From an uncultured Acidimicrobiales bacterium (lineage in GTDB: Bacteria > Actinomycetota > Acidimicrobiia > Acidimicrobiales > Hopanoidiivorantaceae), in contig CAZERQ010000004.1 in NCBI GenBank assembly GCA_964514465.1, forward strand, positions 1 to 45,827: a stretch of DNA of 45,827 nt, in the 5' to 3' direction. The translations under genes and the position numbers were made by a program. The stretch's first letter is position 1. Each line of letters opens with the position of its first letter. The notes beneath the pieces are model-generated. The model did no database searches. It was given only the letters and a program-made list of their open reading frames with translations, and was not told where the DNA came from. Below are positions 19,905 to 39,254 of the stretch, in pieces.

Positions 19905-20546
19905 TTAGGCCAGCAAACCCTCCAGCTCGTGGATCACCAGCAGGATGCCTGACTTCACGCTCACCATGGCTTCGTATCCCATCAGTTCGTTGCTGACACC
20001 GCGGCTGGATCCCAGCTTCAGCGTCTCATAGTCAAGCTCCCAGCGCAACCCTCGGGCCAGCACACCTTCAACATCTCCACCCCAGGGAATTAGCGAAACA
20101 TACTGCCCCGCCAGCCCTTCGAACATCACCCTGTCTGTGACCACGTGGACGATAGCTGAGCCCATCTGGGCGGTTACTTGAATGTGGGCGGGCAGGGCGG
20201 CCAGCAGATCAACATTGGCCAGAGAGTGATCCAGCCGACCGCCGTGGCCGCCGATCATGGTGATGCTGGTGGGGTTCTGCTCAAGCGCTGCTTGAAATGC
20301 CAGATCTAGGTCAGTGGCGTCTTTGTCGGTGTCAAATTTGCGCACCTGTGCTCCGGTTCTTTCGGCGTGGGCTATGGCACTTGCGGGAGTGGAATCCAGA
20401 TCGCCCACCAACAGATCCACCTCAACCCCGTGAGCCTGGGCGACCAGCAGGCCCGAGTCGGCTGCAATGACATAGTTGGGCGGGGCCGGCAACATCCGGA
20501 AGATGCGGGCAACCTTGTCGCCACCGGCAAAGACCCAGATGTTCAT
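19905..20546 (-). CDS. Thiamine pyrophosphokinase (TPK/ThiN-type)
   Basis: VIAADSGLLVA, VGDLDS and FDTDKDATDLDLAF are TPK catalytic-domain motifs, followed by a C-terminal thiamine-binding beta domain. Size 213 aa. Confidence 0.75.
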   Translation of the reverse strand: MNIWVFAGGDKVARIFRMLPAPPNYVIAADSGLLVAQAHGVEVDLLVGDLDSTPASAIAHAERTGAQVRKFDTDKDATDLDLAFQAALEQNPTSITMIGGHGGRLDHSLANVDLLAALPAHIQVTAQMGSAIVHVVTDRVMFEGLAGQYVSLIPWGGDVEGVLARGLRWELDYETLKLGSSRGVSNELMGYEAMVSVKSGILLVIHELEGLLA

Positions 20547-20554
20547 GGAAGATG

Positions 20555-20580
20555 TCCCCCGGCTGTGTGGGACCGGGGGA
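20555..20580 (-). terminator. Perfect 8-bp inverted repeat (possible intergenic stem-loop) between the giant gene and the TPK gene
   Basis: TCCCCCGG-N10-CCGGGGGA sits 28 nt downstream of the giant-gene stop and 9 nt upstream of the TPK ATG. No U-tract follows on the transcribed strand, so it is more likely an RNA-stability or attenuating hairpin than an intrinsic terminator. Confidence 0.3.
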
Positions 20581-20607
20581 CCAATTAAGTTGGGCTTGGC
20601 GACTCGG

Positions 20608-23600
20608 CTAGGGTGCGGTGTAGGTTCCCGTGGCTGTCGTGTCGCCAGCCGCCAGTGTTACATCGGCCGGCGTGGTCAGGCCAGAAATCTCAGGCCAACT
20701 GACGACATACTCGCAGCCAGAGTCCTCGCCGCCGTCAATGTCGACCGCCATCACCATGACGTCCGCAGCGCTGCCGTCAGATCCGATCATCATTGTCCTG
20801 GCGTGGCTGAAGTAGCAAGGCTGATAATTCCGTGGGAACCCAGAATCCTCGCCACCGATCAAGCGCGGCGACAGGTGCCCATTGGGCGTCTTGAGAGTTC
20901 CTTGGATCGTGACCCGCGCAGTGTCGCCGTTGCGACTATTGTCGGGCGTGGTCAGCGACAAAGTGATTGTCTTGAGCCTCACCAGCGACAGCTCAACGTG
21001 AACGTTGGGCCGGCGGATCAGAACCAGCGCATCGGTGCCGATGTTGACCTCATGCGCTGTTGCGGCGCCGCTGGGATCCTGCCCCATGTGTGTGAGATAG
21101 TCCCCAGTGAAGGCGGACGGGAAGTCGACACCGCAGGAGACAGAGGCTTGCGGCCTGGGCAACTCTGGGCTTCCGGCTGTCTCGGCGTCGCAGGCGAACA
21201 CCCTGTCGGCTGCCTGTCCAGTATCAATCTGATAGGTTGTCGTCTCAGCGATGCTGACAGAGCGATAGTCAGCGAACATGGGGACTTCCGCTGGCTCGTC
21301 AAGGTAGTATTCACTTGACGGCCTGATAGCTAGATTAGCGTCAGAGACAGAAGTCGCAATTTCATATTCGCAGATGGTCTTGTCGTTTGCGTCGTCGTCA
21401 TCGGTGAGTGAGGCGATTATGTCGGCATATGTCGACTCATCCGTGCTCATAACCAGGTTGGCTGACGTTCCGTCAATCTCTGCGGTGGTCTGCGTGAGCG
21501 ATGATGAGACAACATAGGTCTCCACCACGCTGGTGGTGCACTCGCCCTGTGTCTCATCAGATCTGCTATAGGTAATGTCCAGCGTTGTGCCAGCAAAAGC
21601 GTTGCTGCCACTGCTATCAACCACAGGCACCAAAATATTTGCCTGTGGCCTGAAGGTGGTGCCCAGGGGTGAGAACGGAGCCGCAAAAGTGGCTCTGGTG
21701 AAGTTGCTGTTCTCGTTGATGGTGGTTGACGACAGCGACTCCAGATACAGCGGGGAAATGTCATATTCCGTGTGGGGCCAGCCAGATTCATAAATCGTAA
21801 TCTCGTAGGAACACGGCGTGCTGGAACCGGCAATGTGCCCTGGCAAGCTATTTATGCCATCGGCTATTACCGTCTGGCCGCCAATCATCTTTTCATAACC
21901 TGCGGTTACTTCACCGTCGTCACCAATGGTGTAGGCCCTTCTTTCCCTGGTGGGACACTCCTCAGGCGAGAGATCTGTGGGAACAAAATCAACCCAAAGC
22001 ACGGTGCCGGAGAAGTCATTGGCATCCTCGGCGTCATTGTCGGCATCCCAGGAAGGTATCCTGAAGTCAATATTTGGCACAAACGATGAAGCCCACTCTA
22101 CGTTATATTCAGCAAAGACAAAGGTGGGCGGGTCGTCCATAGGTGTGGCCGCGCTCACCCGTGCGAACGGTATCGGCAAACCCGAGTTAGCAATCTCTAG
22201 CACTTCCTCAATCTCTAGCGCAAGCTTGATTCGTTTGAGTTCAGCAGCAGTCAGACCGCCCGCTTTGAGATCGGTAACCGTGGCGCTGTCAAAGCCCGTA
22301 TAGGCCTCTAACTCAGCGTTTGTGAGTTCCTCGATTTGCTCATCAAGGATATACGTTGACCTGCCGTTGATGCTGCTCAGCCTCAGGTTGTCCAGATCGT
22401 CGGATATGGACACTTCATATTCGCACGGGGCTGCCAGCTGGCTGTCGCCTGAGCCACCGTCGGGGTTGGTGCCATCGCCGCCACCTTGATAGGCTGCGGG
22501 TTGGTCGATCAGCCGCGGCGGATTAGCAGAGGCCACGTTGCCATCGTCATCCACCGTGTAGATGGCCGAATAGTAGCCGATGTTGTAGAGACTGGTAGCA
22601 GGCTCATCCCCTCGGGCTACCGCCGCGACAGCTGCCTTGTATATCTCGTCCATGGCTGTTTCAACAGCGGCTCTGATGGCTGTCTGGGTGGCATCAGAGC
22701 GCATCGTTTCACTGGTCAGCTCTTCGATTCTGGCGGCCAGCGCCTCACCGGTCAGGCCTTCACCTGTGGCGGTGGTGGTGGCGGCGGTGCGGGCCGCGGC
22801 TTCCTGGTCGCTGCGTGCCCGCTCATACAGGGCAGCGATCTCCGAGCGCTTGTCAACATAGAAGTCATAGGGGTTGCACTCAAACGCTGAACCAGTTTCC
22901 CATATCACACCACCCGAACTGGCAATCGCTCGCTTGGGCCAGAAGTCCACCGTGAAAGTGGTGCCGGAATAGATGTTGTTGCCGTCGGCGCCGTCAGTCT
23001 GGGGCACCTGAATGTTGACATTAGGCGTGAAGTAGGTCTGCACCAGATCCAACTCCTCAAGCGTGGGGATATAGCCCGGCGGCAACACGCCCGACTGGTG
23101 GTATATTGCGCTGATGACATTTGATTCGGCACTCAAGTGGGTCACGAAGCTCGCCCCGTCCCGGTTGAGGATATACAGGTCAGTGCCAGAGACGGTGGTG
23201 GGGTTCTCATGTGGCCATATGACCGTATAGACACACCTGGCGGCAGGCCCTATAGTCGTGCCATCTTTAGCAATGTCATAGGCCGGAGGCTGATCCATCA
23301 ACCTGAAGGATGGGTCGTTGGGCGTCACGCTTCCATTTTCTTGGACCGTGTAGGTAACAAGATATGGCCGCACAGCTGACGGAGTTGCCTCAGAGTTGGC
23401 TGGCCTTTGCGCTCCGGGATTGTCAGCAGTTGCTTGCAGTTGGTCTGTGATTTCAGACAGGTGCTGGCTGACAACTGCAGGCGGATTGCAGTGGAAGGAT
23501 GCGTCGTGCGCGGGACGGAACCGCACCACAAATTGGGTGTTCGTGAAAGCATTGCGGCCGTCGTTTTGGGGCACGCCGATGTTGACGATCGGGGTGAAAT

Positions 23601-26600
23601 AGGTGGCCGTCAGCTTCGGAGGCCTGGCGACATAGGTGAACCTTGCGGCTGCGTCACCGCTGGAGACGACCGCCGGCGCGATGGTGTTCGGCGCGGCTTT
23701 TATGATTGCAGACTCACTTAGTACCCGACGCGTCAGACCGGTCAGACAGTTGTTCTCACAGTTACCATCACCGTCGAACTCAATTGGTATTCTGTCAGCA
23801 GCTGGCACCACGATAGACCTGATCTCCTCTTCGGTCAAGCCATCCTGGAGCAGAGCTTCAATCTCGGAGTCGGTCAAGTCTGACCTCAGGCTCTTGATGT
23901 CAACTGCGCTCAAGCGCTCAAGCCCGGTGGAACCGGAGATTTGGCTGCCGTCCACTGCGTCAAGCTGAAGGCCGTTGGCGTCGCCCACCGAGATCTCAAG
24001 CAGGTAGCTGCACTCAACATCAACTGGGCTTCTGTAGGGCGACGGGACGGTCCCATCTGCACGCTCCACATAGGCGTTGCCGGGCTTGTGCACCAGCTCG
24101 GGCACGTTGCTGGACGTTACCATGCCGTCATCGCCCACTGTGTAGGTGGCGGTGTAGGGCGCGGGAGCGTTCTTGCGGGTGGGGCTGTAGTTATAGCCTG
24201 CGGGGAAGCAGCCGGGGTTGCCTCTCCAGCCAGGGGTGGCCATCCAACCTGTGGGCCAGAACTTCACCGTGAACGAAACACCGGAATAGATGTTGGGGGT
24301 GGGTCCGCCAGGCATCTGGGCCACTTCATTCACCTGTGGCACCCCAATGATCACGTTGGGCATGAAGGTGGAGCTCGGTGTCGGCACAAAATCTGCCACA
24401 TAGACATAGTTGGCGGACATCTGGCTTTCGCTGACAGTTGCCACGGCCAGAGTGTTGGGCGCTAAAGCCTGGATTTGGGCTGCGGTCAAGCCAACATCGG
24501 GGGCACTCTGGGCTGCGGCATAGCCATCAAGCTCCAGGCAGAACTCAGAGCGGCAACCCTTGAGGAATCTGATATTGGCCACAATATCGGCACGGGTTTC
24601 AATTTCGTCATCGGTCAGGCCACCGACACCGCCCAGCAGAGTTTCAATCTCAGCGTCGCTCATGCCAACCAGCAGACCTTCAACCATTGCCTTGACCTCG
24701 TTGTCGGTCAAGTCGGCCGCCGCAAAATCGGTGGTGAAAAAGTCGTCAATCGCATTCTCGCTCAGGCCGACAAGAGTTGCAAGATTGGCCTTGTTTGTGT
24801 TGGCCATGGCTGCCAGGCTCTCTTTGAGGCCCTCGTTGTCTGTGGCTGTTTGGCCGTTGACGCTTTCCAAGATCAGATTTCTTGGGCTGGTGGTGATCGT
24901 CTGGCGCACATCATAGACGCACTTGCTGGCGGGCTCATACCGGTCGGTGACAGTTGCAGCAGGTTGGTTCACCAAACGCGGGGCGGTTCCTGTTGCCATG
25001 CCGCCAGATTGGACTGTGTAGGTGGCGTGATAGGGTGCCGTGCTGGGGTCATTGCGCCGGTAGGAGAAGGGATCATAGCCTTGCGGATTGCAATCCCTTG
25101 CAGAACCCAGAACCGGGAAGAACTCCACCGTGAAGGAGGTTGCGGCCGCGTTGGAATAGTCGTTGTTCCCGTCACCGTCGGCATCGGTGTCAGGCACCAT
25201 AATGTTCACCGTGGGCGTGAAATAGGTTTGCACAACCGTAGCGGGTGTGTTGGCCAGCATTTCGTTTTCACAGGTGTTCCCGATGGCTTGGAGATCTGCA
25301 CTGGTGGGATCGCAGTCAACCTCCTCGTCCGGCTGCCAGACATATGCCGGGATGTCTCCGCCTGGCTCAAAGTAGATACCCGCAAGGGGTGTCTCAGAGT
25401 CAAGATAGGTGGAATAGAACGCAAGAAGCAAATCTTCCCCGGCACTGCAACTCTCGACACTCAGACGATCTCGCAGGGCTTCAGGCACTGTGCTGCACTC
25501 ACGATTTTCAAAGAGAATCAGGTAGGTGCCCTTGGCCTCCACCCAAGTGGGCCACTTGACGCTGTAGGTGCACGCAAGCGCACGAGTTCCATCTGGCGCA
25601 TAGGCCGCGGGCTCATTTATCAGTCTCAAAGACGGCGGATCCCCAGCTGCTTCGGTGCCCTCCACGAGCACCACAGTGCCATCGTCTTGAATTCTGTAGG
25701 TGGCCTCATATGCTGGAACCGCATCTCCTGTGGGCCGATCCTCGCCCGGGGTGATTTCGGGAAGTCCGTCTGGGTTGTTGCACCAATAGCTAGAGTCTAT
25801 GACGGTGGGGGCACCTTGACGCGGGCGGAACTCCAGCACAATGTCAGTGCCCGAGAAGTCGTTGATTTGGTTGTTGTCAGCGTCTTTTGGCGGCACGATG
25901 ATGTTCACGCGCGGGGTGAAATATGTGGCCACCAGAGCTTCAGGCTGGACAACATAGGACACCGTCGCGTCTGTCTGGTCTGCGTTGACAATTGCGGCGG
26001 GCACAGAGTTGGTGGCAAGGCTCCTGATTTTGTCGACGCTAAAGCCGGCTGTTGCGCTGACCGCTTCTGAACGGGTTTTGAGTTCATCCTCGGTCAAGCC
26101 GCCTGTTCCCCCAATGAGATCTGTGGCAGCCATGTCGGCCAGCCCAGTGAGCAAGCCACCGATAATGGCCACGATTTCGTTGTCGGTCAGGCCACCCATC
26201 AAAAGTTCTTCAACCACAGCCTCGCTAAGTCCGCTTTCTGACATCAGCGTGGCCTTGTCCCAAGATCTTATGACCCCATCAATTCCAGTGTTGCCTGCCG
26301 GCCTGGCACCATTGACGGTGTCCACCTGCAGCGTGACTCCTGCAGCGGTGCCTGCAGCGGTCACGTCAGACGGCCACACCACCGTGTAGGAGCACGGATC
26401 GGCCAACTCAACGGGATCAGCACCCGGTTTACGGATGTAGCGGGGGTTGCCTGGAATGGGTAGCCCGGTGTCTGGGTGAATTAGACGGTCATCCTCGGGG
26501 GTTAGAGGGTCATCCTCGGGGTAGGTTGTGGCAACGGGATTTTCTTGTCCCTCCTTCAATTCAGGCCCATCATAAAGACCAAGCGGGTCATAGAGCGGAT

Positions 26601-29600
26601 CAAAATTCGGGTTTGGAATGCCACCGCCGCCCACATAGGCTGCAGGCTGGTTCACCAACCTGGGTGCGGTGCCCGTTACCATGCCGTCTGGCTGGACGGT
26701 ATAGGTGGCCGACTTGGGATTGCCGCAGAGTGGCCAGTTCCTTCTCCAGTCTGGCACCGCTGGCGCGGGCGCGAACTGCACCTCAAAAGTGGTGCCGACA
26801 TAATCAGTCCCATCTCCAGGCAGCTCAATAACCAAATTGGGCGTGAAATAAGACGCGGCCAAGTCTTCTTCCAGGGGAACATACCTGGGGAGCACCCGCT
26901 CTTCACCGCCACGCGTCCGCCAGAAATAAATTGCGGAAGCGGTCGTGTCTGCGTCTATCCACCTGATTGGTCCTTGCTGTGGTTCGTCCAGCAGGTTGAG
27001 TCGCTCCTGGAAACTTCCGGTTGTGGAATCATCAAGTTGGCTTCCGGTATCATTCGGCCACCACACAGCATAGGAGCACCTGACCCGCCGGGTCTGCAAC
27101 TCAGCAAAAGTGCTTATGTCGTTGGGGACTTGGCCTGCTTCAAGGTTCTCCGGGCTAATGGGAATTATGTGATATGTGGCCCAATCCACCATCGTCGGGC
27201 CTTCACCAGTCACCGAGCCGTCGGGCTGGACTGTGTAGGTGGCCGAATAGGGAGGATTGGGTGGGGGATTAACCAGGTTGCCGCTGTCTGTCAGGAAGCG
27301 GCGGGTGGTTGAGGGAATGTTCCCTGACCAGCAAGCAGCATGATAGCGTTCGCCGGGCGTGGGCCAGAACTGCAACTCAAATGTCGCACCGGCATAGTCG
27401 TTGCTGCCGTCGCCGTCTTCGTCAACTTGGGGCACAATAATGTTCACACGTGGTGTGAACGTGGTTGTGAGAGGGATATAGGAGGCTGTGGCATCCTTTT
27501 GGGCATTGCTGACGACAGCATAGGGCACGGTGTTGGGCGCCAGAGCTCTCAACGCCTCAGCCTTGGTCGAAAAGTTCAGAAAGTCGTCCGTTGCTGGCGT
27601 GGCGAAATTCGGTATTCTCACGTCGTAATTCGGCAACCTTGCGAAGATCTGAGCAGCCGCTTCAATTGTTTCTAGCTCGGTTGCGGTGTCTGAGTTGAGG
27701 GTGTTCAATATAGCCTCAGCCTCTGACTGCGACAATTGATCATTTATCTCCATGATCTGCGCTGCGGTCAGGCTATTCAAACTGGTGTCTCCTGCAGCAC
27801 TTTGGCCATTAATTTGACCAAGCGATAGCACACCTGACCCTTCTGGCCACTGCACCCGATAGGAGCACGGGGCAACCTGCACGGGAGGATCGTCTGCTGA
27901 ACCGCCGCCAACATAGGCTCCCTGAACCTGATCCACCAAAAGATCGGTTACACTGGCTTGATCCTCAGGCACAACAGAGCCATCATCTCGCACTATGTAG
28001 GTTGCAGTGTAGGGCTGGGTGCCGAACGGCCTGGGAGTGTTCTGATTGTTGAAAGTCGCTGAATTTCTGGCTTCCAAATACGCCGCAACCCTAGGATCTT
28101 CGGGGTTGTTGCAATCAAAGACGGAATTGCGCTCAGGATAGAATGCAACCGTGAAAGTGGAGCCGGCATAGTCGTTCACACTGTCTCCATCCAGGTCATC
28201 AGGTGGCACAGTGATCACCACATTCGGGGTGAACCTGGTTGACTCCGGCCTTTCAGGATAAACTGGCTCAGGGGTGGGGCCGTCAGCTGACTCAAAATAG
28301 ATTGCACGGGCGGTGCTGGGGTGATCGCTGTCTTCGTCGTCGCCATCTATCTTGGTGGTGGAGGGGAACAGATCACTGAAGTCGGTGAAACCAATGGAAC
28401 GGAAGCCATCCGGCTGTAATACGCTTTCTTCAGCATCAAATGCTGCTTGGGTCGGTAATGCGTCAGCAGAGGCCGGGCGCAGATAGCCACCGCCGCTGAG
28501 CGGAACCAACGGCCAGATGACGTCATAGACACAGGGCGCAGCCCGCAGATATCTGGGATTGCCGGGAGACAGCGGCTGGCTCGAGTCGTAAGTGGGGTTT
28601 GGAAGGTCCTTGTCATAGGCATCTGCCTGATTGACCAGCCTGGGTGCTGTGCCGGTCACGGAGCCGTCAGGTTGCACGGTATATTCGGCTTCATGGTAGT
28701 AATATGTGATAGGCCTGTCTACCTCATTGAAATGCTCCTCGAGCAACTCCACAACTCGCGCATTATAATCCGCACCCGCAGTCAAACCCTCAGAAGTTGC
28801 GGTTGCCTCAGCTGCTGCGATCACCACCTCTCTTTCACGGCCGCAATCGATGGCGGAGCCACGCTGAGGTATGAACCTGACTGTGAAGGTTTCGCCGGCA
28901 TATCTGCTGGCAACGGACGGGCCCAGCTTGATGTCAATGGTCGGGGTGAAATAGGTCGGGAGTGCCTCGCCAATAACTCCTTCTCGCACGAGAATTTCCC
29001 CAAGGATGGTCTCGAAGTTGCAAATATCCACCGGGCGGTCTTGCAGGAACTTGCCCTGGACTTGGCCGCCGGTTCCGCTTCTTGTCGAGGGCGTCTGCTC
29101 TGGGGAGGTATAGTCACGGTTTGCGGTGTCATCAAATGCCAGGCCTCTGTTGACGGTGGCACCCACCGTGTTTGTGAAGAAGGTTTCAACGTCCAAGGTC
29201 AGTTCGCCGACACAAGGATTGGGCACAACTATCTCGCCCGGGCTGGTTGCGCTTACAATTCCCTCGTTCCCCGGATTTTCGGCACGCACGGCAGCCAAAG
29301 CCGCATCAAGCTCGCCCTCGTTAATCGGCCAGATCACATCGTATTCGCACTTGGGCGCCAGCTGGCGTGGTCCAACGTAGGTGTTGGGCTGGTTGGGCAA
29401 CCTGGGGGCTTCGCCCGTTACGGTGCCGTCATCTTGCACTGTATATATTGCAGAATGGGCCGGAACTGCATTAGGATTGTCGCGGGTGTTGACTGGTTGC
29501 CGGGGGGCAGCATCGGTGTTGCCTGTGTTGTCGTTCTCAGTCGCCCAGGCTTCGGCCTCAATCAGCCAGGCTGACACAACATCAAACGTGTTACACATAA

Positions 29601-32301
29601 ACGATGATCCCCGATCAGGCGCAAACTTGATCTCAAAGGTGGTGCCGGCATAGTCCTTGACGCCATCGTTGTTATAGTCGACCTGGGGCACGCTTATCTG
29701 GATGTCCGGGGTGAAATATGACGTGGCAATGTCGCTCGCTGTGGGAAAGGCGATTGAGGTGGCATAGACCTCATAGGTGGCAGAGATCGTGCTGTCGGTT
29801 GCACTGAGCGATCCCAGCGGGTATATTTCGTCAACAAACTCATCAATGGGATCAAGCCCTAGCCGCGCTCGTTCCACGTTAAGCACCTGGGCTGTTGCCT
29901 CGGTCACCTTGTTGATTGTGGACTCTCCGATGTCCCACGGGTTGCCGTCAAACATTCTCAGCACCAGCTCGTTGAAGTATAGCTCGGCCACCGTGTAGGT
30001 ATATTCGCAACGGGGAAGGGCGGCAAAAGCATCGGCGTCGTTAGCAGCATCGGGATCGACCAGATAGTAGGCACCTGGTGAATCCACCAGTCTGGGAGCA
30101 TCGCCTTCCAGTGTGCCGCTGGCGTTCAGCGTGAACTCCACCCGCATGATCCGCGAAGCGCCAACATCTGATTCTTTGAAGGAGGCGACACCGGCTTCAC
30201 CGCAGATGGATCGGGCTGAAGCGGCGGTTTCTGTGCCTTCAACAGGCCAGATGTTCACCCAGACTGTGAAGTCGGTGTAGTCGTTGTTGGGGTTCAGGTC
30301 TTCGTTGTCGGAACCCAGCGACGGCAGGTTGATGTCGATTGTCGGGGTGAAATAGGTCTGGGTCAGGACGGGTAGCTCGGCGGTGCGATCTGTTTTTACT
30401 GTCCCTTTGTCAGACGTGACTGTCGATCTAACGACGTTAGCGGCGGGCACGACATATTCCGCGGTGACTCTGTCTCTTGTGGCGGTTACCGTTGCTGGTG
30501 CTACGGTGTTGGCAGCCTGGGTTCTGATCTCGTCTTCGCTCAGGCCCAACGCCACACCAGTCCGCCGCGTTGTGGCAATCGCAGCCTCAACACGAATTGC
30601 TATCTCAGCATCGGTCAGGCCGTTTTCAACCAGCGCCATGATCTGGGAGTCATTTAGTCCCTTGAGCAGACCTTCCACAATCGCCTTGACTTCGTTATCA
30701 CTTAGGCCACCTGCCACCAATGCCTCAACCGCAACCCGGCTCAAGCCGCTGAGTCGAATGAGACCGTCAATGTTATGTGCCCGTACTGCCTCATAGAGCC
30801 CGATGGAAGATGTCGGCATAGGTCTGCCATCGATTGAGATCAATTCGAGGCCGGCAACATCTGGCCATGCGACAGTGTATGCGCATCGGGGAACCAACAC
30901 GAGGGAATCGGACTGGCTGCCGCCGCCTCGATAGGCAGCTGCCTGGTTAACCAGACGGGGGCCCGTGCCTGTGGCTACATTGCCGGATGACGGCACAGTG
31001 TATGTGGCGGTGAAAGTGGAACTGCCAGTGGGCCGGGGGGTGTTCCGATCAGCAGCCTGTGCTGCCCGGTGCGCGGCGATGAACTCCGGAGTGTTGCATT
31101 CGAATGGCGAGCCGGTGAAGTCGTCTTGACGGTCGATGTCTGTGGGCCTGAACTCAACCTCGAAGGTGGTGCCGGCGAAACCGTTGGGGACTGTGATCTC
31201 GACTCGCGGGGTGAAGTAGGTGGTTTGGATGGCGCCAGAGGAAGAGCGCACCCGGTCGAAGCGAGCCACGGCAATTGTCTCATTGCGCGAGGACGCCGAC
31301 TTGTCGGATTCCACGGTGGTGATGCTGCCACCCGAAAGAGCAAAGCCCGAGATGGTCTCAAAGCTGATGGCATAGCGACAGCCGCCGCCATAGCCTTCTG
31401 GCACATCAACCAGCTGGGGTCGGTTGGCGACCGCGAGCTCCCCGGTGCCGTCGTCTTCAATTGCCAGCCTCGCGGTGACGTTGTTGGAGCAGCCGGCGGC
31501 CGGATTGGTGGCGATCGCATCCGACCTGAAGGTCACCGCCACTGTGGTGCCGGAGAGCGAGTGCGCGGTGCTGGGGTTGGCGTCATTGTCTTGCACTGCA
31601 ATCTGCACCTGCGGGGTGAAGAAGGTGTCGGTGGTGGCCAGCGGATCCACGGGGTTGGGGGAAGTCGATGAAGGCCTTGAGTTCGAGCTGGGAGGAACGG
31701 AATAGGAGCCATAGACCGTGACGCCCTTGCCGGGCACCTCTTCGGTGGCGGAGGAGAAATAGATGGTGGAGCCGGGATAAAGCGACACGCCGGGCAACCT
31801 CGGGAAGCCGACCTCATATTTGCAGCTTTCGGTCTGGCCGGCGGGGACATCAATCAGCTGAGGGCCGGAGTTGCCGATGGCGACCGTGCGGATTCCGCCC
31901 GGGTCGGTCTGCACTGTCACCTCGCCCCAAGCATGACTGGTGCAGCCCTTCAAGGTGATGGCCTGGGCTCCCCCGTCAAGCGCGGCTTGCTCCTCGGTGA
32001 TCACTTCGCCTTCGTCGTTGAGCAGTCGCAGGATCACGGGGCTGGAGGTGAAGCTCACCCGGATGGTCTGGCCCATGAAGTCGTTTCTGTCGTCGCCGTC
32101 GGCGTCCAGCCATGGCAACTCGATCCTGATGGTCGGGGTTGTGGTGGTGGCGGTGTTGGACTGGCCCTGGACGGTGCCGGGTGTGACCAGCAACCAGCCG
32201 AATACCAGCAACGACAGGAGCGACACTGCCAGCTTCATCGGGCCGGCGTGCCTCGGCTGCCTGAGGCGCTCAGTTCTATGTTTTGGATTGCTAAGGCTCA
32301 T
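20608..32301 (-). CDS. Giant secreted modular repeat protein (3,897 aa), family unrecognised
   Basis: Uninterrupted 11,694-nt ORF. GGAGGA (32311-32316) lies 9 nt upstream of the ATG at 32301. N-terminal signal-like sequence. 17 clear and 1 degenerate copies of a YFTP...CxYxVxWP module, plus 6 helical LTDxEI cassettes. No C-terminal anchor motif. Confidence 0.9.
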   Translation of the reverse strand: MSLSNPKHRTERLRQPRHAGPMKLAVSLLSLLVFGWLLVTPGTVQGQSNTATTTTPTIRIELPWLDADGDDRNDFMGQTIRVSFTSSPVILRLLNDEGEVITEEQAALDGGAQAITLKGCTSHAWGEVTVQTDPGGIRTVAIGNSGPQLIDVPAGQTESCKYEVGFPRLPGVSLYPGSTIYFSSATEEVPGKGVTVYGSYSVPPSSNSRPSSTSPNPVDPLATTDTFFTPQVQIAVQDNDANPSTAHSLSGTTVAVTFRSDAIATNPAAGCSNNVTARLAIEDDGTGELAVANRPQLVDVPEGYGGGCRYAISFETISGFALSGGSITTVESDKSASSRNETIAVARFDRVRSSSGAIQTTYFTPRVEITVPNGFAGTTFEVEFRPTDIDRQDDFTGSPFECNTPEFIAAHRAAQAADRNTPRPTGSSTFTATYTVPSSGNVATGTGPRLVNQAAAYRGGGSQSDSLVLVPRCAYTVAWPDVAGLELISIDGRPMPTSSIGLYEAVRAHNIDGLIRLSGLSRVAVEALVAGGLSDNEVKAIVEGLLKGLNDSQIMALVENGLTDAEIAIRVEAAIATTRRTGVALGLSEDEIRTQAANTVAPATVTATRDRVTAEYVVPAANVVRSTVTSDKGTVKTDRTAELPVLTQTYFTPTIDINLPSLGSDNEDLNPNNDYTDFTVWVNIWPVEGTETAASARSICGEAGVASFKESDVGASRIMRVEFTLNASGTLEGDAPRLVDSPGAYYLVDPDAANDADAFAALPRCEYTYTVAELYFNELVLRMFDGNPWDIGESTINKVTEATAQVLNVERARLGLDPIDEFVDEIYPLGSLSATDSTISATYEVYATSIAFPTASDIATSYFTPDIQISVPQVDYNNDGVKDYAGTTFEIKFAPDRGSSFMCNTFDVVSAWLIEAEAWATENDNTGNTDAAPRQPVNTRDNPNAVPAHSAIYTVQDDGTVTGEAPRLPNQPNTYVGPRQLAPKCEYDVIWPINEGELDAALAAVRAENPGNEGIVSATSPGEIVVPNPCVGELTLDVETFFTNTVGATVNRGLAFDDTANRDYTSPEQTPSTRSGTGGQVQGKFLQDRPVDICNFETILGEILVREGVIGEALPTYFTPTIDIKLGPSVASRYAGETFTVRFIPQRGSAIDCGREREVVIAAAEATATSEGLTAGADYNARVVELLEEHFNEVDRPITYYYHEAEYTVQPDGSVTGTAPRLVNQADAYDKDLPNPTYDSSQPLSPGNPRYLRAAPCVYDVIWPLVPLSGGGYLRPASADALPTQAAFDAEESVLQPDGFRSIGFTDFSDLFPSTTKIDGDDEDSDHPSTARAIYFESADGPTPEPVYPERPESTRFTPNVVITVPPDDLDGDSVNDYAGSTFTVAFYPERNSVFDCNNPEDPRVAAYLEARNSATFNNQNTPRPFGTQPYTATYIVRDDGSVVPEDQASVTDLLVDQVQGAYVGGGSADDPPVQVAPCSYRVQWPEGSGVLSLGQINGQSAAGDTSLNSLTAAQIMEINDQLSQSEAEAILNTLNSDTATELETIEAAAQIFARLPNYDVRIPNFATPATDDFLNFSTKAEALRALAPNTVPYAVVSNAQKDATASYIPLTTTFTPRVNIIVPQVDEDGDGSNDYAGATFELQFWPTPGERYHAACWSGNIPSTTRRFLTDSGNLVNPPPNPPYSATYTVQPDGSVTGEGPTMVDWATYHIIPISPENLEAGQVPNDISTFAELQTRRVRCSYAVWWPNDTGSQLDDSTTGSFQERLNLLDEPQQGPIRWIDADTTASAIYFWRTRGGEERVLPRYVPLEEDLAASYFTPNLVIELPGDGTDYVGTTFEVQFAPAPAVPDWRRNWPLCGNPKSATYTVQPDGMVTGTAPRLVNQPAAYVGGGGIPNPNFDPLYDPLGLYDGPELKEGQENPVATTYPEDDPLTPEDDRLIHPDTGLPIPGNPRYIRKPGADPVELADPCSYTVVWPSDVTAAGTAAGVTLQVDTVNGARPAGNTGIDGVIRSWDKATLMSESGLSEAVVEELLMGGLTDNEIVAIIGGLLTGLADMAATDLIGGTGGLTEDELKTRSEAVSATAGFSVDKIRSLATNSVPAAIVNADQTDATVSYVVQPEALVATYFTPRVNIIVPPKDADNNQINDFSGTDIVLEFRPRQGAPTVIDSSYWCNNPDGLPEITPGEDRPTGDAVPAYEATYRIQDDGTVVLVEGTEAAGDPPSLRLINEPAAYAPDGTRALACTYSVKWPTWVEAKGTYLILFENRECSTVPEALRDRLSVESCSAGEDLLLAFYSTYLDSETPLAGIYFEPGGDIPAYVWQPDEEVDCDPTSADLQAIGNTCENEMLANTPATVVQTYFTPTVNIMVPDTDADGDGNNDYSNAAATSFTVEFFPVLGSARDCNPQGYDPFSYRRNDPSTAPYHATYTVQSGGMATGTAPRLVNQPAATVTDRYEPASKCVYDVRQTITTSPRNLILESVNGQTATDNEGLKESLAAMANTNKANLATLVGLSENAIDDFFTTDFAAADLTDNEVKAMVEGLLVGMSDAEIETLLGGVGGLTDDEIETRADIVANIRFLKGCRSEFCLELDGYAAAQSAPDVGLTAAQIQALAPNTLAVATVSESQMSANYVYVADFVPTPSSTFMPNVIIGVPQVNEVAQMPGGPTPNIYSGVSFTVKFWPTGWMATPGWRGNPGCFPAGYNYSPTRKNAPAPYTATYTVGDDGMVTSSNVPELVHKPGNAYVERADGTVPSPYRSPVDVECSYLLEISVGDANGLQLDAVDGSQISGSTGLERLSAVDIKSLRSDLTDSEIEALLQDGLTEEEIRSIVVPAADRIPIEFDGDGNCENNCLTGLTRRVLSESAIIKAAPNTIAPAVVSSGDAAARFTYVARPPKLTATYFTPIVNIGVPQNDGRNAFTNTQFVVRFRPAHDASFHCNPPAVVSQHLSEITDQLQATADNPGAQRPANSEATPSAVRPYLVTYTVQENGSVTPNDPSFRLMDQPPAYDIAKDGTTIGPAARCVYTVIWPHENPTTVSGTDLYILNRDGASFVTHLSAESNVISAIYHQSGVLPPGYIPTLEELDLVQTYFTPNVNIQVPQTDGADGNNIYSGTTFTVDFWPKRAIASSGGVIWETGSAFECNPYDFYVDKRSEIAALYERARSDQEAAARTAATTTATGEGLTGEALAARIEELTSETMRSDATQTAIRAAVETAMDEIYKAAVAAVARGDEPATSLYNIGYYSAIYTVDDDGNVASANPPRLIDQPAAYQGGGDGTNPDGGSGDSQLAAPCEYEVSISDDLDNLRLSSINGRSTYILDEQIEELTNAELEAYTGFDSATVTDLKAGGLTAAELKRIKLALEIEEVLEIANSGLPIPFARVSAATPMDDPPTFVFAEYNVEWASSFVPNIDFRIPSWDADNDAEDANDFSGTVLWVDFVPTDLSPEECPTRERRAYTIGDDGEVTAGYEKMIGGQTVIADGINSLPGHIAGSSTPCSYEITIYESGWPHTEYDISPLYLESLSSTTINENSNFTRATFAAPFSPLGTTFRPQANILVPVVDSSGSNAFAGTTLDITYSRSDETQGECTTSVVETYVVSSSLTQTTAEIDGTSANLVMSTDESTYADIIASLTDDDDANDKTICEYEIATSVSDANLAIRPSSEYYLDEPAEVPMFADYRSVSIAETTTYQIDTGQAADRVFACDAETAGSPELPRPQASVSCGVDFPSAFTGDYLTHMGQDPSGAATAHEVNIGTDALVLIRRPNVHVELSLVRLKTITLSLTTPDNSRNGDTARVTIQGTLKTPNGHLSPRLIGGEDSGFPRNYQPCYFSHARTMMIGSDGSAADVMVMAVDIDGGEDSGCEYVVSWPEISGLTTPADVTLAAGDTTATGTYTAP
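20692..21015 (-). repeat. Giant-protein module 18 (compact, C-terminal)
   Basis: aa 3763-3870: RRPNVHVELSL, DTARVTIQG, C3829, C3863-EYVVSWP. The protein ends 27 aa later. Confidence 0.6.
21349..21663 (-). repeat. Giant-protein module 17 (compact)
   Basis: aa 3547-3651: GTTFRPQANILVPVVDSSGSNAFAGTTLDITY, C3588, C3644-EYEIATS. Confidence 0.65.
21790..22089 (-). repeat. Giant-protein module 16 (compact)
   Basis: aa 3405-3504: SSFVPNIDFRIPSWDADNDAEDANDFSGTVLWVDF, C3449, RAYTIGDDGEVT, C3497-SYEITIY. Confidence 0.7.
22162..22341 (-). repeat. Helical cassette F (aa 3321-3380, diverged)
   Basis: EQIEELTNAELEAYTGFDSATVTDLKAGGLTAAELKRIKLALEIEEVLEIANSGL. Confidence 0.5.
22402..23040 (-). repeat. Giant-protein module 15 (with long helical insertion)
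   Basis: aa 3088-3300: QTYFTPNVNIQVPQTDGADGNNIYSGTTFTVDF, FEC3142N, Ala/Glu/Thr-rich insert, YSAIYTVDDDGNV, PPRLIDQPAAYQGGG, C3293-EYEVSIS. Confidence 0.8.
23212..23610 (-). repeat. Giant-protein module 14
   Basis: aa 2898-3030: TATYFTPIVNIGVPQNDGRNAF, FHC2938N, YLVTYTVQENGSVT, FRLMDQPPAY, C3023-VYTVIWP. Confidence 0.8.
23662..23919 (-). repeat. Helical LTDxEI cassette E (aa 2795-2880)
   Basis: LSAVDIKSLRSDLTDSEIEALLQDGLTEEEIRSIV, a DGDGNCENNC mini-loop, SESAIIKAAPNTIAPAVV. Confidence 0.6.
23989..24375 (-). repeat. Giant-protein module 13
   Basis: aa 2643-2771: SSTFMPNVIIGVP, SGVSFTVKF, C2698, YTATYTVGDDGMVTS, C2764-SYLLEIS. Confidence 0.75.
24442..24771 (-). repeat. Helical LTDxEI cassette D (aa 2511-2620)
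   Basis: GLSENAIDDFF...DLTDNEVKAMVEGLLVGMSDAEIETLLGGVGGLTDDEIETRADIV, a CRSEFC mini-loop, GLTAAQIQALAPNTLAVATV. Confidence 0.7.
24898..25233 (-). repeat. Giant-protein module 12
   Basis: aa 2357-2468: QTYFTPTVNIMVPDTDADGDGNNDY, TSFTVEF, RDC2404N, YHATYTVQSGGMATGTAPRLVNQPAA, C2461-VYDVRQT. Confidence 0.8.
25549..25929 (-). repeat. Giant-protein module 11
   Basis: aa 2125-2251: ATYFTPRVNIIVPPKDADNNQINDFSGTDIVLEF, YWC2174N, YEATYRIQDDGTV, LRLINEPAAY, C2244-TYSVKWP. Confidence 0.8.
26002..26241 (-). repeat. Helical LTDxEI cassette C (aa 2021-2100)
   Basis: SGLSEAVVEELLMGGLTDNEIVAIIGGLLTGLADMAATDLIGGTGGLTEDELKTRSEA...KIRSLATNSVPAAIV. Confidence 0.7.
26371..26856 (-). repeat. Giant-protein module 10
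   Basis: aa 1816-1977: ASYFTPNLVIELP, VGTTFEVQF, C1859, SATYTVQPDGMVTGTAPRLVNQPAAYVGGGG, GNPRYIR, C1970-SYTVVWP. Confidence 0.8.
27055..27468 (-). repeat. Giant-protein module 9
   Basis: aa 1612-1749: TTFTPRVNIIVPQVDEDGDGSNDYAGATFELQF, C1657, YSATYTVQPDGSVTGEGP, C1742-SYAVWWP. Confidence 0.8.
27502..27780 (-). repeat. Helical cassette B (aa 1508-1600, diverged)
   Basis: LNSLTAAQIMEINDQLSQSEAEAILNTLNSDTATELETIEAAAQIF...KAEALRALAPNTVPYAVV. Confidence 0.5.
27844..28242 (-). repeat. Giant-protein module 8
   Basis: aa 1354-1486: STRFTPNVVITVPPDDLDGDSVNDYAGSTFTVAF, FDC1397N, YTATYIVRDDGSV, GAYVGGG, C1479-SYRVQWP. Confidence 0.8.
28510..28956 (-). repeat. Giant-protein module 7
   Basis: aa 1116-1264: TYFTPTIDIKL, AGETFTVRF, IDC1153G, helical insert, EAEYTVQPDGSVTGTAPRLVNQADAY, GNPRYLR, C1257-VYDVIWP. 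Confidence 0.8.
29002..29193 (-). repeat. Giant-protein module 6 (degenerate remnant?)
   Basis: aa 1037-1100: ETFFTNTVGATV resembles the opening strand. Flanking C1030 and C1094 are present, but the APRLVNQ and CxYxVxWP motifs are missing. Confidence 0.3.
29326..29727 (-). repeat. Giant-protein module 5
   Basis: aa 859-992: SYFTPDIQISVPQVDYNNDGVKDYAGTTFEIKF, FMC903N, AIYTVQDDGTVTGEAPRLPNQ, C985-EYDVIWP. Confidence 0.8.
29986..30360 (-). repeat. Giant-protein module 4
   Basis: aa 648-772: TYFTPTIDINLP, DNEDLNPNNDY, C700, APRLVDSPGAY, C765-EYTYTV. Confidence 0.7.
30502..30750 (-). repeat. Helical LTDxEI cassette A (aa 518-600)
   Basis: GLSRVAVEALVAGGLSDNEVKAIVEGLLKGLNDSQIMALVENGLTDAEIAIRVEA...GLSEDEIRTQAANTVAPATV. 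Confidence 0.7.
30862..31227 (-). repeat. Giant-protein module 3
   Basis: aa 359-480: TYFTPRVEITVP, AGTTFEVEF, FEC402N, FTATYTV, GPRLVNQAAAYRGGG, C473-AYTVAWP. Confidence 0.8.
31357..31626 (-). repeat. Giant-protein module 2 (compact)
   Basis: aa 226-315: TFFTPQVQIAV, GTTVAVTF, C271, RPQLVDVPEGYGGG, C308-RYAISFE. Confidence 0.65.
31801..32148 (-). repeat. Giant-protein module 1 (compact)
   Basis: aa 52-167: TPTIRIELPWLDADGDDRNDF, GQTIRVSF, C120, GPQLIDVPAG, C160-KYEVGFP. Confidence 0.65.
32164..32301 (-). other. Predicted signal peptide or signal anchor of the giant protein (aa 1-46)
   Basis: Basic n-region (KHRTERLRQPRH), hydrophobic core LAVSLLSLLVFGWLLV, and a small-residue site TVQG/QS. 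An alternative ATG at 32238 (MKLAVSLL) would give a shorter n-region. Confidence 0.6.
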
Positions 32302-32480
32302 TGTTGTTATTCCTCCGTGAATGAATACTAGCTATCACTATAGCACGCCAAAGAGTGCTACGCAACATTTTAGGTGAAAAATTTTGGGTGGTTGGGTTTG
32401 GGTTCGGTTCGGCAAAATTCGCTTGTTCGTTATTCTATGTTAGTTTAGCGCGCTGTGTTGGATTTTGTGTGGCATTTGTT
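32302..32480 (-). promoter_or_regulatory. AT-rich upstream/5'-UTR region of the giant gene
   Basis: 179-bp spacer between the mltG stop and the giant-gene ATG, markedly AT-richer than the flanks. Contains SD GGAGGA (32311-32316), the inverted repeat TAGCAC-N8-GTGCTA (32341-32360) and GGTT(T/C)GG reiterations (32388-32411). No promoter hexamers assigned with confidence. Confidence 0.45.
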
Positions 32481-33575: not shown

Positions 33576-33991
33576 CGGGCATCCAGCCAGGACTGCAGCA
33601 TCACGGCCGCGGCCACCTTGTCGATCTTGGCTCGTCTCTTTGGGCCGCTCAGATTGGTCTGCTTGAGGGCGTGGTCGGCGATGGCGGTGGTCAGGCGTTC
33701 GTCGTGGGTCAGCACCGGTATGTCCAGCACTTCGGCCAGCTGCGCGCAGACGGACTGCGTGGCTTGGGCGGCCGGGCCCAGCTCGCCCGACAGCGAGAGC
33801 GGCAGACCCACCACCACAGCCTCGGCTTCCAACTCAGCGGCCATGGTCGGCAGCTTGTCGCGCAGGACTTGGCTGGGCGTGGCGGCTTTGGGCACCTCAA
33901 TATAGCTGTGCGGCGATGCGATGGTCTGGGCGGTGTCGCTGACGGCCACGCCGATGCGCCGCTGGCCCAAGTCAAGCCCTATGACTCGCAT
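33572..33991 (-). CDS. ruvX: Holliday-junction resolvase-like nuclease RuvX/YqgF
   Basis: MRVIGLDLGQRRIGVAVSD start motif, VVGLPLSLSG and ERLTT. The track start GTG at 34063 would add a 24-aa Pro/Arg/Thr-rich extension abutting the alaS stop. The ATG at 33991 matches the family N-terminus. Confidence 0.82.
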   Translation of the reverse strand: MRVIGLDLGQRRIGVAVSDTAQTIASPHSYIEVPKAATPSQVLRDKLPTMAAELEAEAVVVGLPLSLSGELGPAAQATQSVCAQLAEVLDIPVLTHDERLTTAIADHALKQTNLSGPKRRAKIDKVAAAVMLQSWLDAR

Positions 33992-34063
33992 GTTTGGGTT
34001 TGCGCGGGTCGGATGGGTCGGACGGGTTGGCGCGGCGTGGACGGGACGGCGCGGGGCGGGCAC

Positions 34064-36712: not shown

Positions 36713-36758
36713 TGGGGTTAAGTCTAGTTTGGTTTGGGCGCGGTGCTGCGGTGGCACT

Positions 36759-37755: not shown

Positions 37756-37780
37756 GGGTTGCTGGGGTTTGGGGCAGGGG
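37755..37780 (+). other. Canonical G-quadruplex motif G4-N5-G4-N3-G4-N2-G4
   Basis: GGGGttgctGGGGtttGGGGcaGGGG begins in the stop codon of the 2-hydroxyacid dehydrogenase gene, at the boundary to the low-GC islet. It is also embedded in a GGGTTGC...GCAACCC inverted repeat (37756-37791). Confidence 0.6.
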
Positions 37781-37810
37781 TTTGGCAACCCGTCACACAC
37801 GCTTCGGTGA

Positions 37811-39178: not shown

Positions 39179-39254
39179 GGTTATGAGATTAGCAGGTTAT
39201 GAGGTTAGAAGGGTTGTCGGAACGGAGCGTGCCTCAGGTGGGGGAACCTGTCTT

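Follow-up and report, generated by a model that had tools for sequence, protein, structure and literature searches.

A giant protein with a signal-like N-terminus from an Acidimicrobiales bacterium, built from 17 copies of an all-beta domain that matches no described family

Background

Giant surface proteins are the main contact of bacteria with hosts and surfaces, and those that have been characterised are nearly all built from a few known domains. In Gram-negative bacteria, SiiE, LapA, MpIBP and BapA are very large, acidic adhesins exported by type I secretion systems (T1SS), in which tandem bacterial Ig-like (BIg) domains of about 100 residues make up surface fibres that are stiffened by calcium at their acidic loops. 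The protein described here resembles them in its acidity, its many tandem beta domains and its acidic loops. Unlike them, it has a putative Sec-type signal at its N-terminus and no T1SS signal at its C-terminus, it lacks RTX nonapeptides and any match to Big or other Pfam families, and it carries a conserved pair of cysteines within the domain. Its host, moreover, belongs to the actinobacteria and lacks an outer membrane, and no HlyD or TolC gene lies nearby.

Sortase-anchored proteins with Cna_B, SdrD-B or SpaA domains (MSCRAMMs and pilins) share with it a Gram-positive host and tandem beta domains, they have the Sec signal peptide that is predicted for it, and the B repeats of SdrD bind calcium in acidic loops, much as is proposed below. 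However, LPXTG, a C-terminal transmembrane helix and a basic tail are absent from the giant protein and from the true members of its family, neither Cna_B, SdrD_B nor any other Pfam family matches it, and it is likely to be stabilised by a disulfide and not by an isopeptide bond. An enrichment in adhesion-type domains, cadherin, fn3 and Calx-beta among them, has been reported for sponge-associated Acidimicrobiia (PMC11706023). The 'eukaryotic-like' proteins of sponge symbionts that carry these domains come from the same kind of organism. Cadherin and Calx-beta also bind calcium, but no such model matches the giant protein and no eukaryotic counterpart of its domain was detected. The DxDxDG loops of thrombospondin type 3, FG-GAP/VCBS and EF-hand-like proteins have the spacing seen in the family consensus and in the loops DEDGDGSND and DADGDGNND. 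Here, in contrast, it is a 120-aa beta domain that holds the loop, among its first strands, and no TSP3 or beta-propeller repeat is involved; TSP_3, FG-GAP and VCBS give no match, and the canonical residues have been lost in many units. What is new is the building block, the domain; the kind of protein is already familiar.

Results

The gene and its integrity

The window, that is the whole stretch of DNA analysed, is 45,827 nucleotides long. An ATG-started reading frame of 11.7 kb on its minus strand is open throughout and encodes 3,897 amino acids, and a GGAGGA precedes the start codon at the predicted distance (Table 1). The predicted mature product is strongly acidic, with a mass of about 411 kDa and a pI of 4.2. 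Within the gene there is only one tandem DNA repeat, of 41 nt with a 21-nt period, and the dispersed matches are 26-93 nt long, 60-89% identical and lie over stretches coding for the conserved motifs. Because similarity between the copies is so low at the DNA level, they are old, diverged duplications and not an assembly artefact, as the original prediction had proposed. That prediction also called for a check on chimerism and frameshifts; the frame was found intact, and an independent assembly matches the 3' kilobase of the gene at 99.9% identity. Scans for promoters and terminators around the gene gave nothing over background, and tRNA and Rfam features were not found within the window.

Table 1. 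Positions of the gene, its start region and the repeat units within the window
Feature	Residues (aa)	Core (aa)	Nucleotides	Strand	Basis or remark
Giant gene, 3,897 codons + stop			20608..32301	(-)	ORF list and translation
Shine-Dalgarno-like GGAGGA, 9 nt 5' of ATG			32311..32316	(-)	Read from sequence
Signal-peptide-like N-terminus, predicted cleavage TVQG/QS	1-46		32164..32301	(-)	Sequence and hydropathy
Repeat unit 1	49-221	49-168	31639..32157	(-)	Own-module and relatives-only profiles
Repeat unit 2	222-357	222-317	31231..31638	(-)	Compact; both profiles
Repeat unit 3	358-645	358-482	30367..31230	(-)	Helical insert in aa 483-645
Repeat unit 4	646-857	646-775	29731..30366	(-)	Own-module profile
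Repeat unit 5	858-1112	858-994	28966..29730	(-)	Own-module profile
Repeat unit 6	1113-1351	1113-1266	28249..28965	(-)	Own-module profile
Repeat unit 7	1352-1609	1352-1488	27475..28248	(-)	Helical insert in aa 1489-1609
Repeat unit 8	1610-1813	1610-1751	26863..27474	(-)	Canonical acidic loop DEDGDGSND
Repeat unit 9	1814-2122	1814-1979	25936..26862	(-)	Helical insert in aa 1980-2122
Repeat unit 10	2123-2355	2123-2253	25237..25935	(-)	Own-module profile
Repeat unit 11	2356-2640	2356-2470	24382..25236	(-)	Core modelled; helical insert in aa 2471-2640
Repeat unit 12	2641-2896	2641-2773	23614..24381	(-)	Helical insert in aa 2774-2896
Repeat unit 13	2897-3085	2897-3032	23047..23613	(-)	Both profiles
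Repeat unit 14	3086-3401	3086-3302	22099..23046	(-)	Helical insert in aa 3303-3401
Repeat unit 15	3402-3544		21670..22098	(-)	Complete compact domain, modelled at pLDDT 90
Repeat unit 16	3545-3759	3545-3653	21025..21669	(-)	Core followed by trailing 106 aa
Repeat unit 17	3760-3897		20611..21024	(-)	Relatives-only profile

Number and layout of the repeat units

When the protein was searched with a profile of its own modules, 16 copies were recovered, with i-E-values between 4e-10 and 6e-41, and a weak copy at the C-terminus. The same places were matched by a profile built from other proteins only, which found 19 stretches in all with i-E-values down to 3e-15. This second profile also matched the C-terminal copy (aa 3829-3897, 28 bits, profile positions 43-118), and with the 16 strong copies the total is therefore 17. 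Seventeen clear copies and one degenerate copy had been predicted. Seventeen copies in all are supported, and an 18th has no statistical support in any linker: nothing over noise was found in the longer ones at aa 995-1112, 2254-2355 and 3654-3759. The units are not uniform. The 118 aa that trail unit 5 contain an extra pair of cysteines and match nothing, the 106 aa that trail unit 16 are unassigned, unit 14 has an additional 100 aa or so inserted after the first Cys, and the first half of unit 17 is degenerate, while its second half matches the family profile up to the strand TGTYTAP that ends the protein.

The full repeat unit is about 120 aa long, all-beta, and has 10 strands. The motif copies of the module as first drawn were recovered; its end, however, does not lie at CxYxVxWP, which is followed by two more conserved strands, 'GLxLxSxNG' and '..AxY..'. 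Insertions occur at two sites. The one after the first Cys had been predicted, but a second exists between strands 9 and 10, where six units (3, 7, 9, 11, 12 and 14) carry a lineage-specific helical insert built of GL[ST][DE]xE[IV] repeats. The relatives have compact units of 115 aa, expanded here at two separate sites, and the protein offers a view of domain evolution in progress.

Each copy in the giant protein has one pair of cysteines. Across 50 aligned domains, C96 and Y98 never vary, and F6, P8, C48 and Y138 are each present in at least 90%; in a set of 515 domain sequences, C48 and C96 form the top coevolving pair. One disulfide per domain therefore probably locks its fold. The family consensus of the acidic loop, DxDDDxDGxNDF, fits the D-x-D-x-D-G spacing, and the acidic positions of the loop covary in the 515 sequences. 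Canonical DxDxDG loops occur in units 5, 8 and 11 of the giant protein, in the forms DEDGDGSND (unit 8), DADGDGNND and DYNNDGVKD, and the other units have degenerate acidic loops. From the consensus, its covariation and the low pI of the protein, the loop would most likely bind calcium and stiffen the chain. That the canonical form is kept in only 3-4 of the 17 units counts against a calcium-stabilised fibre.

Comparison with described families and folds

The module had been predicted to lie outside the known repeat families, and every search bore this out. With the whole protein as query, the sole Pfam-A match at E <=1 was ParE_toxin, which scored 12 bits where the cut-off is 23, and none of the families tested reached its gathering threshold (Big_1-13, Cadherin, fn3, PKD, He_PIG, Calx-beta, CARDB, DUF11, Cna_B, SdrD_B, TSP_3, VCBS, HemolysinCabind, Collagen and others). 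Six relatives gave nothing meaningful in Pfam, with two unrelated families below their cut-offs at E <=0.1. When 50 single domains were searched at E <=10, no family was matched by more than two of them. NCBIfam returned no family at E <=1 for the whole protein. In the sequences of the PDB, the A1 profile found one chain, 6vs7 'Adhesin', at a non-significant E of 0.39, and the A2 profile, made from 50 sequences, found none at E <=10.

Unit 15 was modelled with AlphaFold2 as a domain of 10 strands, with a pLDDT of 90.1 and a pTM of 0.82. An earlier model of the unit 11 core, which lacked the last two strands, had a pLDDT of 81 and matched no fold. The strand pairings b2-b3, b3-b4, b4-b7, b8-b10 and b9-b10 are independently backed by coevolution. 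Coevolving strand pairs are mostly adjacent in sequence (b2-b3, b3-b4, b4-b5/b6, b9-b10), together with pairs of the N-terminal strand to b7/b8, and the B-E and C-F pairs of the Ig Greek key were not seen. A Foldseek search with the pLDDT-90 model gave no significant match to Ig-like or other known beta-sandwich folds. The best E-values were 0.098 in the PDB and 0.077 in BFVD, with TM <=0.3 among the matches shown. The best PDB matches were lipocalins (E 0.1-0.8, probability <=0.2, TM about 0.2), and no Ig-like domain was among the top 50 PDB matches listed. Taken from these profiles and the model, the domain appears to belong to no described protein family.

Relatives

The original prediction had suggested a profile search for the module. 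When 1.84 billion cluster representatives were searched exhaustively with HMMER and the module profile, 105 proteins came up. Of these, 44 have E < 1e-30, and 98 also match a profile of the full domain; the protein is no orphan. Most relatives consist of a signal peptide and domains in tandem, each of 113-122 aa and as many as 31 to a protein, and 16 are longer than 2,000 aa. Often they are clustered, with two to four giant paralogues together. All 10 relatives whose source records were checked are unnamed proteins from assemblies. Combinations with other domains are few: relative P0024 starts with three CWB2 cell-wall-binding repeats, and the distant relative P0071 is the only one to combine the domain with fn3. 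The giant protein itself shows tandem matches to the relatives-only profile, the Cys pair and the strand pattern F-x-P...C-x-Y...A-x-Y. A search with it of GTDB species genomes and JGI metagenomes found no relative. This is a real family, though a rare one, with about 100 representatives from metagenomes.

Termini, export and anchoring

The layout of the N-terminus is as predicted, with a basic n-region, the hydrophobic core LAVSLLSLLVFGWLLV (aa 24-39) and then TVQG/QS, where V is at -3 and G at -1 of the cleavage site (the signal was judged by eye and from hydropathy). The segment at aa 22-42 is the sole strongly hydrophobic stretch of the whole protein. Thirty-eight relatives with complete N-termini have the same layout, 22 of them with a small-x-small-Q site, and a cleavage site of the ...SAQ type recurs among the relatives. 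The giant protein is probably exported through Sec. Export by T1SS, which the ABC exporters at 15.1-19.9 kb might suggest, was rejected: these exporters are ordinary fused TMD-NBD pairs encoded on the opposite strand, there is no HlyD or TolC gene among the neighbours, and the predicted signal is N-terminal. The giant protein also has no HemolysinCabind match.

The protein ends in ...TATGTYTAP. Sequence and hydropathy agree with the prediction that it has neither LPXTG nor a C-terminal transmembrane helix, and its last 60 aa contain no hydrophobic segment. Pfam found none of the wall-binding modules SLH, CWB2 and LysM, and with LPXTG and the C-terminal helix also lacking no recognisable anchor was found, which counts against a fibre. 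The same can be said of the absence of a conserved C-terminal module that about 33 relatives, roughly a third, possess. A place outside the cell or on its surface is suggested by the signal peptide, the Cys pair, the acidic loops and the one relative with cell-wall-binding repeats.

Host and neighbourhood

Compared with the MAG Ca. Hopanoidivorans cymbastelae, a sponge symbiont, the host shows 76% identity in its alanyl-tRNA synthetase (AlaRS); the sponge origin is that of this related MAG. The flanking genes are syntenic with the same MAG. The giant gene, of which the window has a single copy, sits between mltG and a thiamin pyrophosphokinase gene as an insertion specific to the lineage.

Discussion

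We consider it rather probable that the protein is a Sec-exported surface fibre or adhesin made of 17 undescribed all-beta domains and stabilised by disulfides and, in part, by calcium. An acidic chain of about 411 kDa would leave the cell via Sec and would consist of 17 domains of about 120 residues and 10 strands, strung in line with one disulfide each. In several of these the DxDxDG-like loop after the first strands would bind calcium and stiffen the chain. The resulting long extracellular fibre would serve as an adhesin or surface-matrix protein of a member of the Acidimicrobiia that has relatives among sponge symbionts, and the helical inserts on six domains would probably project sideways from it.

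Three other explanations bear on this reading. That the long frame is a chimera made in assembly, or a pseudogene in decay and without function, would be compatible with the metagenomic origin of the contig, a single NCBI record of 45.8 kb, with a GC content below that of the flanks and with a second assembly that confirms just the final 1.06 kb of the gene. We regard it as highly improbable, however, given 11.7 kb of open frame in DNA of 57% GC, the absence of near-identical DNA repeats able to mislead an assembler, a Cys pair and strand motifs that are kept in every unit, and a codon-position pattern that fits coding (GC3 above GC2). Relatives of like build, moreover, reach 3,726-3,957 aa, and over 2,947 nt that cover the 3' end of the gene and its neighbours, an independent Logan contig agrees at 99.93% identity. 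It is doubtful, though less so, that the domain is a far-diverged branch of a described beta-sandwich superfamily (bacterial Ig-like/Big, cadherin-like, CARDB/DUF11, Calx-beta or Cna_B-like) and was missed by insensitive searches, in which case the protein would be one more Ig-like adhesin. Such adhesins classically combine a signal peptide with all-beta domains in tandem, each of about 100-120 aa, and acidic loops; remote similarity between beta-sandwiches can escape Foldseek, and the best BFVD match, although not significant, was a phage protein with a BIG2 domain. Yet Pfam gave no match above its cut-off for the whole protein and no recurrent family for single domains or relatives, NCBIfam and the 50-sequence PDB profile returned nothing, the top PDB folds were weak lipocalin matches, and strand coevolution lacks the pairs of the Ig Greek key.

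The protein could also be a structural component of the envelope, such as an S-layer-like coat, a sheath or a matrix scaffold, and not a partner-binding adhesin. The paralogue arrays of the relatives and the extreme acidity would suit such a role, as would the relative that opens with CWB2 repeats, as clostridial S-layer proteins do, and the giant gene beside that of P0002 with its faint match to RsaA_NTD, an S-layer family. This seems unlikely to us, since the giant protein has no recognisable wall-binding or self-assembly domain, only one copy is present in the window, its GC3 is below that of the neighbours, unlike that of a very highly expressed gene, and the RsaA and CUB matches are faint and on other proteins. 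The fibre or adhesin remains the reading that we prefer. A bolder version of it, put forward tentatively, is that the unit of about 120 residues is a new fold, disulfide-locked, mostly up-and-down beta with a calcium loop and without a counterpart in the PDB. The proteins would then be lineage-restricted surface fibres by which uncultured Acidimicrobiia and their relatives attach to a host (for example a sponge) or to each other, and the GLTDxEI inserts a newly evolved module for binding or spacing.

A 411-kDa protein and about 100 metagenomic relatives are built entirely of a domain that is missing from the curated family libraries and from the PDB, and annotation pipelines therefore assign the giant protein no family. 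The definition of the domain, with its profile, boundaries, Cys pair and acidic loop, would allow many very large unnamed genes to be annotated, and at about 120 aa it is of a tractable size for solving its structure. Should the link to sponge symbionts be borne out, the protein would be a candidate symbiosis factor in a group known so far mainly for ankyrin, cadherin and fn3 proteins.

Gene and product

The giant gene (20608-32301, minus strand) is a single frame, open from ATG to stop for all of its 3,897 codons, as originally predicted, with a GGAGGA 9 bases 5' of the ATG. Its 3' 1.06 kb and the downstream neighbours are 99.93% identical over 2,947 nt to an independent Logan assembly (run SRR16090825). 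Repetition at the DNA level is confined to one tandem repeat of 41 nt and to short dispersed matches (26-93 nt, 60-89% identity) over motif-coding segments. The repeated units are thus old, diverged duplications, as had been proposed, and not a product of assembly.

The N-terminus reads MSLSNPKHRTERLRQPRHAGPMKLAVSLLSLLVFGWLLVTPGTVQG and then, past the predicted cleavage site, QS. A basic n-region precedes a hydrophobic core which, by hydropathy over the full length, is the only strongly hydrophobic segment of the protein. A signal peptidase site fits, with V at -3 and G at -1. The signal-like layout first described is present, as judged from sequence. Residues A, T, V, G, P, D and S are abundant in the protein, and acidic residues (531) outnumber basic ones (231); the predicted mature form has a mass of about 411 kDa and a pI of 4.2. 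It ends ...TATGTYTAP. Pfam and hydropathy searches revealed no RTX repeats and, in agreement with the original prediction, neither LPXTG nor a C-terminal helix.

Repeat unit

A profile of the protein's own modules found 16 copies (independent E-values 4e-10 to 6e-41) and a weak C-terminal one. Because that test is circular, it was repeated with a profile from other proteins only, which matched 19 stretches covering the same units. The C-terminal unit scored 28 bits over profile positions 43-118. This confirmed the units, the C-terminal one included, and 17 are counted. The longer linkers gave nothing above noise with the domain profile, so the 17 clear copies claimed earlier stand but the degenerate 18th is unsupported. 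Every unit has one conserved cysteine pair. Additional cysteines, one or two pairs apiece, occur in three stretches of about 100-118 aa between units (Table).

Past the CxYxVxWP motif, at which the module had been taken to end, every unit goes on through two more strands, GLxLxSxNG followed by ..AxY..; the boundary had been set two strands too early. The final TGTYTAP is the last strand of unit 17. In the relatives described below a compact form of the unit recurs every 113-122 aa and has the consensus TVFSPVVAITVPDIDDDSDGANDFSGTEFEVTFTRVAGSDAGCTETASETYTVGDDGSVTRSGEEAVLVDRPEGVTSRCEYDVAFPESVASAELVLQSGATAVVSAASRSVSATYVAAR. In the giant protein the unit is expanded at two sites, of which only the one after the first cysteine, where the insertion is largest in unit 14, had been recognised. 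The other lies between strands 9 and 10 and holds, in six units, inserts of about 100 aa that are homologous to one another and built of helix-like GL[ST][DE]xE[IV] repeats (Table). These inserts had no match in Pfam or by protein homology search, and their motif occurs in none of 105 relatives.

Mean-field direct-coupling analysis of 515 unique domain sequences (effective number 474) gave a view of the domain independent of AlphaFold. The top couplings are those within the cysteine pair (columns 43 and 79) and among acidic-loop positions 15, 17, 19 and 23. Coupling ladders back the strand pairs b2-b3, b3-b4, b4-b5/b6, b4-b7, b8-b10 and b9-b10, and couplings also back contacts of the N-terminal strands with b7 and b8. 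The ladders place the last two strands within the domain and support a topology that would be largely up-and-down; the couplings did not include the B-E and C-F pairs of an Ig Greek key.

Comparison with known families and folds

The full-length protein matched nothing in Pfam-A or NCBIfam. Six relatives searched against Pfam gave nothing meaningful, the only matches at E <= 0.1 being CbiD and DUF6968, both well under cut-offs. The single-module check proposed earlier was run on 50 domains at E <= 10; each Pfam family was matched by at most two of them and none recurred. Against PDB chains, a profile of the module as first delimited had one non-significant match (E 0.39), and a full-domain profile of 50 sequences had none at E <= 10. 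An AlphaFold2 model of unit 15 (aa 3402-3544) from the latter alignment is all-beta with ten strands (mean pLDDT 90.1, pTM 0.82). With Foldseek its best PDB match had an E-value of 0.098 and a probability of 0.2, the top hits being lipocalins at TM about 0.2, and its best BFVD match (E 0.077) was not significant either; a model of the module lacking its last two strands likewise matched no fold. The module thus matched no described family in these searches, in line with what had been suspected. As modelled, the domain matches no known fold, a claim that stops short of a new one.

Relatives

The candidate family proposed earlier is indeed undescribed but is no orphan. Searched exhaustively by HMMER with the module profile, 1.84 billion cluster representatives yielded 105 proteins at E <= 1e-3, the giant protein itself among them, and 44 at E < 1e-30. 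The full-domain profile matched 98 of the 105; one round of iteration and three extra cluster members brought the set to 101 proteins, of which 42 reach 1,000 aa or more and 16 reach 2,000 aa or more. A single protein can have as many as 31 domains. Most commonly, tandem domains follow a signal peptide. A hydrophobic core is found in 38 complete N-termini of relatives, 22 of them with a small-x-small-Q site. In seven of the 38 (P0006, P0012, P0018, P0025 and P0104 among them) Arg-Arg directly precedes the core, a Tat-like arrangement. One relative opens with CWB2 cell-wall-binding repeats and another has fn3 domains. None of the proteins was named in the ten source records checked, from NCBI (the giant protein itself), ENA, JGI/IMG and Logan assemblies.

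About 33 relatives have an additional conserved C-terminal module, without a Pfam match and, when tested for, absent from the giant protein. It could be the family's anchoring part or functional head. It occupies the last 180-570 aa (in P0006, P0009, P0012, P0014, P0031, P0039 and others) and has two end variants, '...PWFDxxxPGDxVFIYN...W' and '...DDAGRSYVELTGG...TPxLxC'.

Where longer contigs exist, the relatives' genes form part of clusters of two to four giant genes, putative paralogues, and no secretion or sortase gene was seen among their Pfam-annotated neighbours. The adjoining giant genes, in arrays of two to four, encode 1,356 to >5,300 aa (Table), and their only Pfam marks are faint ones to PKD_4, RsaA_NTD and CUB_2.

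Table. Coordinates of features in the window and in contigs with relatives
Feature	Sequence	Coordinates	Strand	Remark
Giant-gene locus	window	19905-36757		giant gene between mltG/yceG and thiamin pyrophosphokinase gene
GGAGGA	window	32316-32311		
Helical insert, unit 3	window	30367-30855	-	GL[ST][DE]xE[IV] repeats
Helical insert, unit 7	window	27475-27837	-	GL[ST][DE]xE[IV] repeats
Helical insert, unit 9	window	25936-26364	-	GL[ST][DE]xE[IV] repeats
Helical insert, unit 11	window	24382-24891	-	GL[ST][DE]xE[IV] repeats
Helical insert, unit 12	window	23614-23982	-	GL[ST][DE]xE[IV] repeats
Helical insert, unit 14	window	22099-22395	-	GL[ST][DE]xE[IV] repeats
Inter-unit stretch, extra cysteines	window	28966-29319	-	aa 995-1112; no domain-profile or library match
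Inter-unit stretch, extra cysteines	window	25237-25542	-	aa 2254-2355; no domain-profile or library match
Inter-unit stretch, extra cysteines	window	21025-21342	-	aa 3654-3759; no domain-profile or library match
DUF6036/AbiEii-like nucleotidyltransferase	window	39723-40262	+	
Small ORFs around it	window	39015-39710, 40430-41134		no family assignment
344-aa ORF	window	36955-37989	-	no Pfam match
391-aa ORF	window	41064-42239	-	no Pfam match
Counterpart of 344-aa ORF	L002	8907-9713		41% identity; same alaS-adjoining position
Giant genes near relatives	L011	1-9669, 30966-31181		
Giant genes near relatives	L012	1-6770, 18495-27362		
Giant gene near relative	L013	15118-20451		1,777-aa gene in L013: same length as family member P0019
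Giant gene near relative	L015	15841-19911		

Locus and host

The giant gene is flanked by ordinary chromosomal genes (RecD2, CoA-ligase, hydratase, CNNM/CorC, ABC exporters), with the thiamin pyrophosphokinase gene directly downstream and MltG/YceG, RuvX and AlaRS directly upstream. The window AlaRS shares 76% identity with its counterpart in the MAG 'Candidatus Hopanoidivorans cymbastelae' and 57% with the one in an Acidimicrobiales MAG, and the order SDR-unknown-AlaRS-RuvX is common to the window and the former; the host is therefore an Acidimicrobiia relative of a sponge symbiont. Two related Acidimicrobiia loci, L002 from the Ca. Hopanoidivorans MAG and L003, keep alaS-ruvX, and L003 also mltG; neither has a giant gene at the equivalent position. 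No close copy was found among GTDB species genomes or JGI metagenome contigs, and no other ORF of the window contains the domain. The pattern fits a lineage-specific insertion into the alaS-ruvX-mltG cluster, perhaps by horizontal transfer, as does the lower GC3 of the gene (0.65 against 0.70-0.86 in its neighbours).

The DUF6036 gene of the window lies in a 56% GC patch at about 39-41 kb. Another lies a few kb from P0002 in L011, which may be coincidence.

Probable function

The gene is intact and encodes 17 all-beta units with a coevolving conserved cysteine pair and acidic loop, in a family of secreted-looking relatives; that it is an assembly artefact or a pseudogene is very hard to credit. 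The product would be exported via Sec and cleaved after G46. Its signal region has no Arg-Arg pair, and even for the relatives that have one, Sec is the more probable route than Tat, these being giant proteins with disulfides. Each domain would form one disulfide. Calcium may be bound at the DxDxDG-like loops, which are canonical in units 5 (DYNNDGVKD), 8 (DEDGDGSND) and 11 (DADGDGNND) and present elsewhere in degenerate acidic versions. The result would be an extended, rigid, acidic fibre of some tens of nanometres, serving in adhesion or a surface matrix. A structural role in the envelope, like that of an S-layer, in place of adhesion would be in keeping with the relatives' paralogue arrays, the CWB2 repeats of one of them and the faint RsaA matches on a gene neighbouring a relative; we consider it unlikely.

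A reported enrichment of cadherin, fn3 and Calx-beta proteins in sponge-associated Acidimicrobiia (PMC11706023) makes a role in host contact plausible for the giant protein, not proven. The original observation is confirmed and its interpretation supported overall, with the corrections to unit count, domain length, insertion sites and orphan status. As a giant secreted tandem-domain protein it is of a familiar kind; its building block is undescribed.
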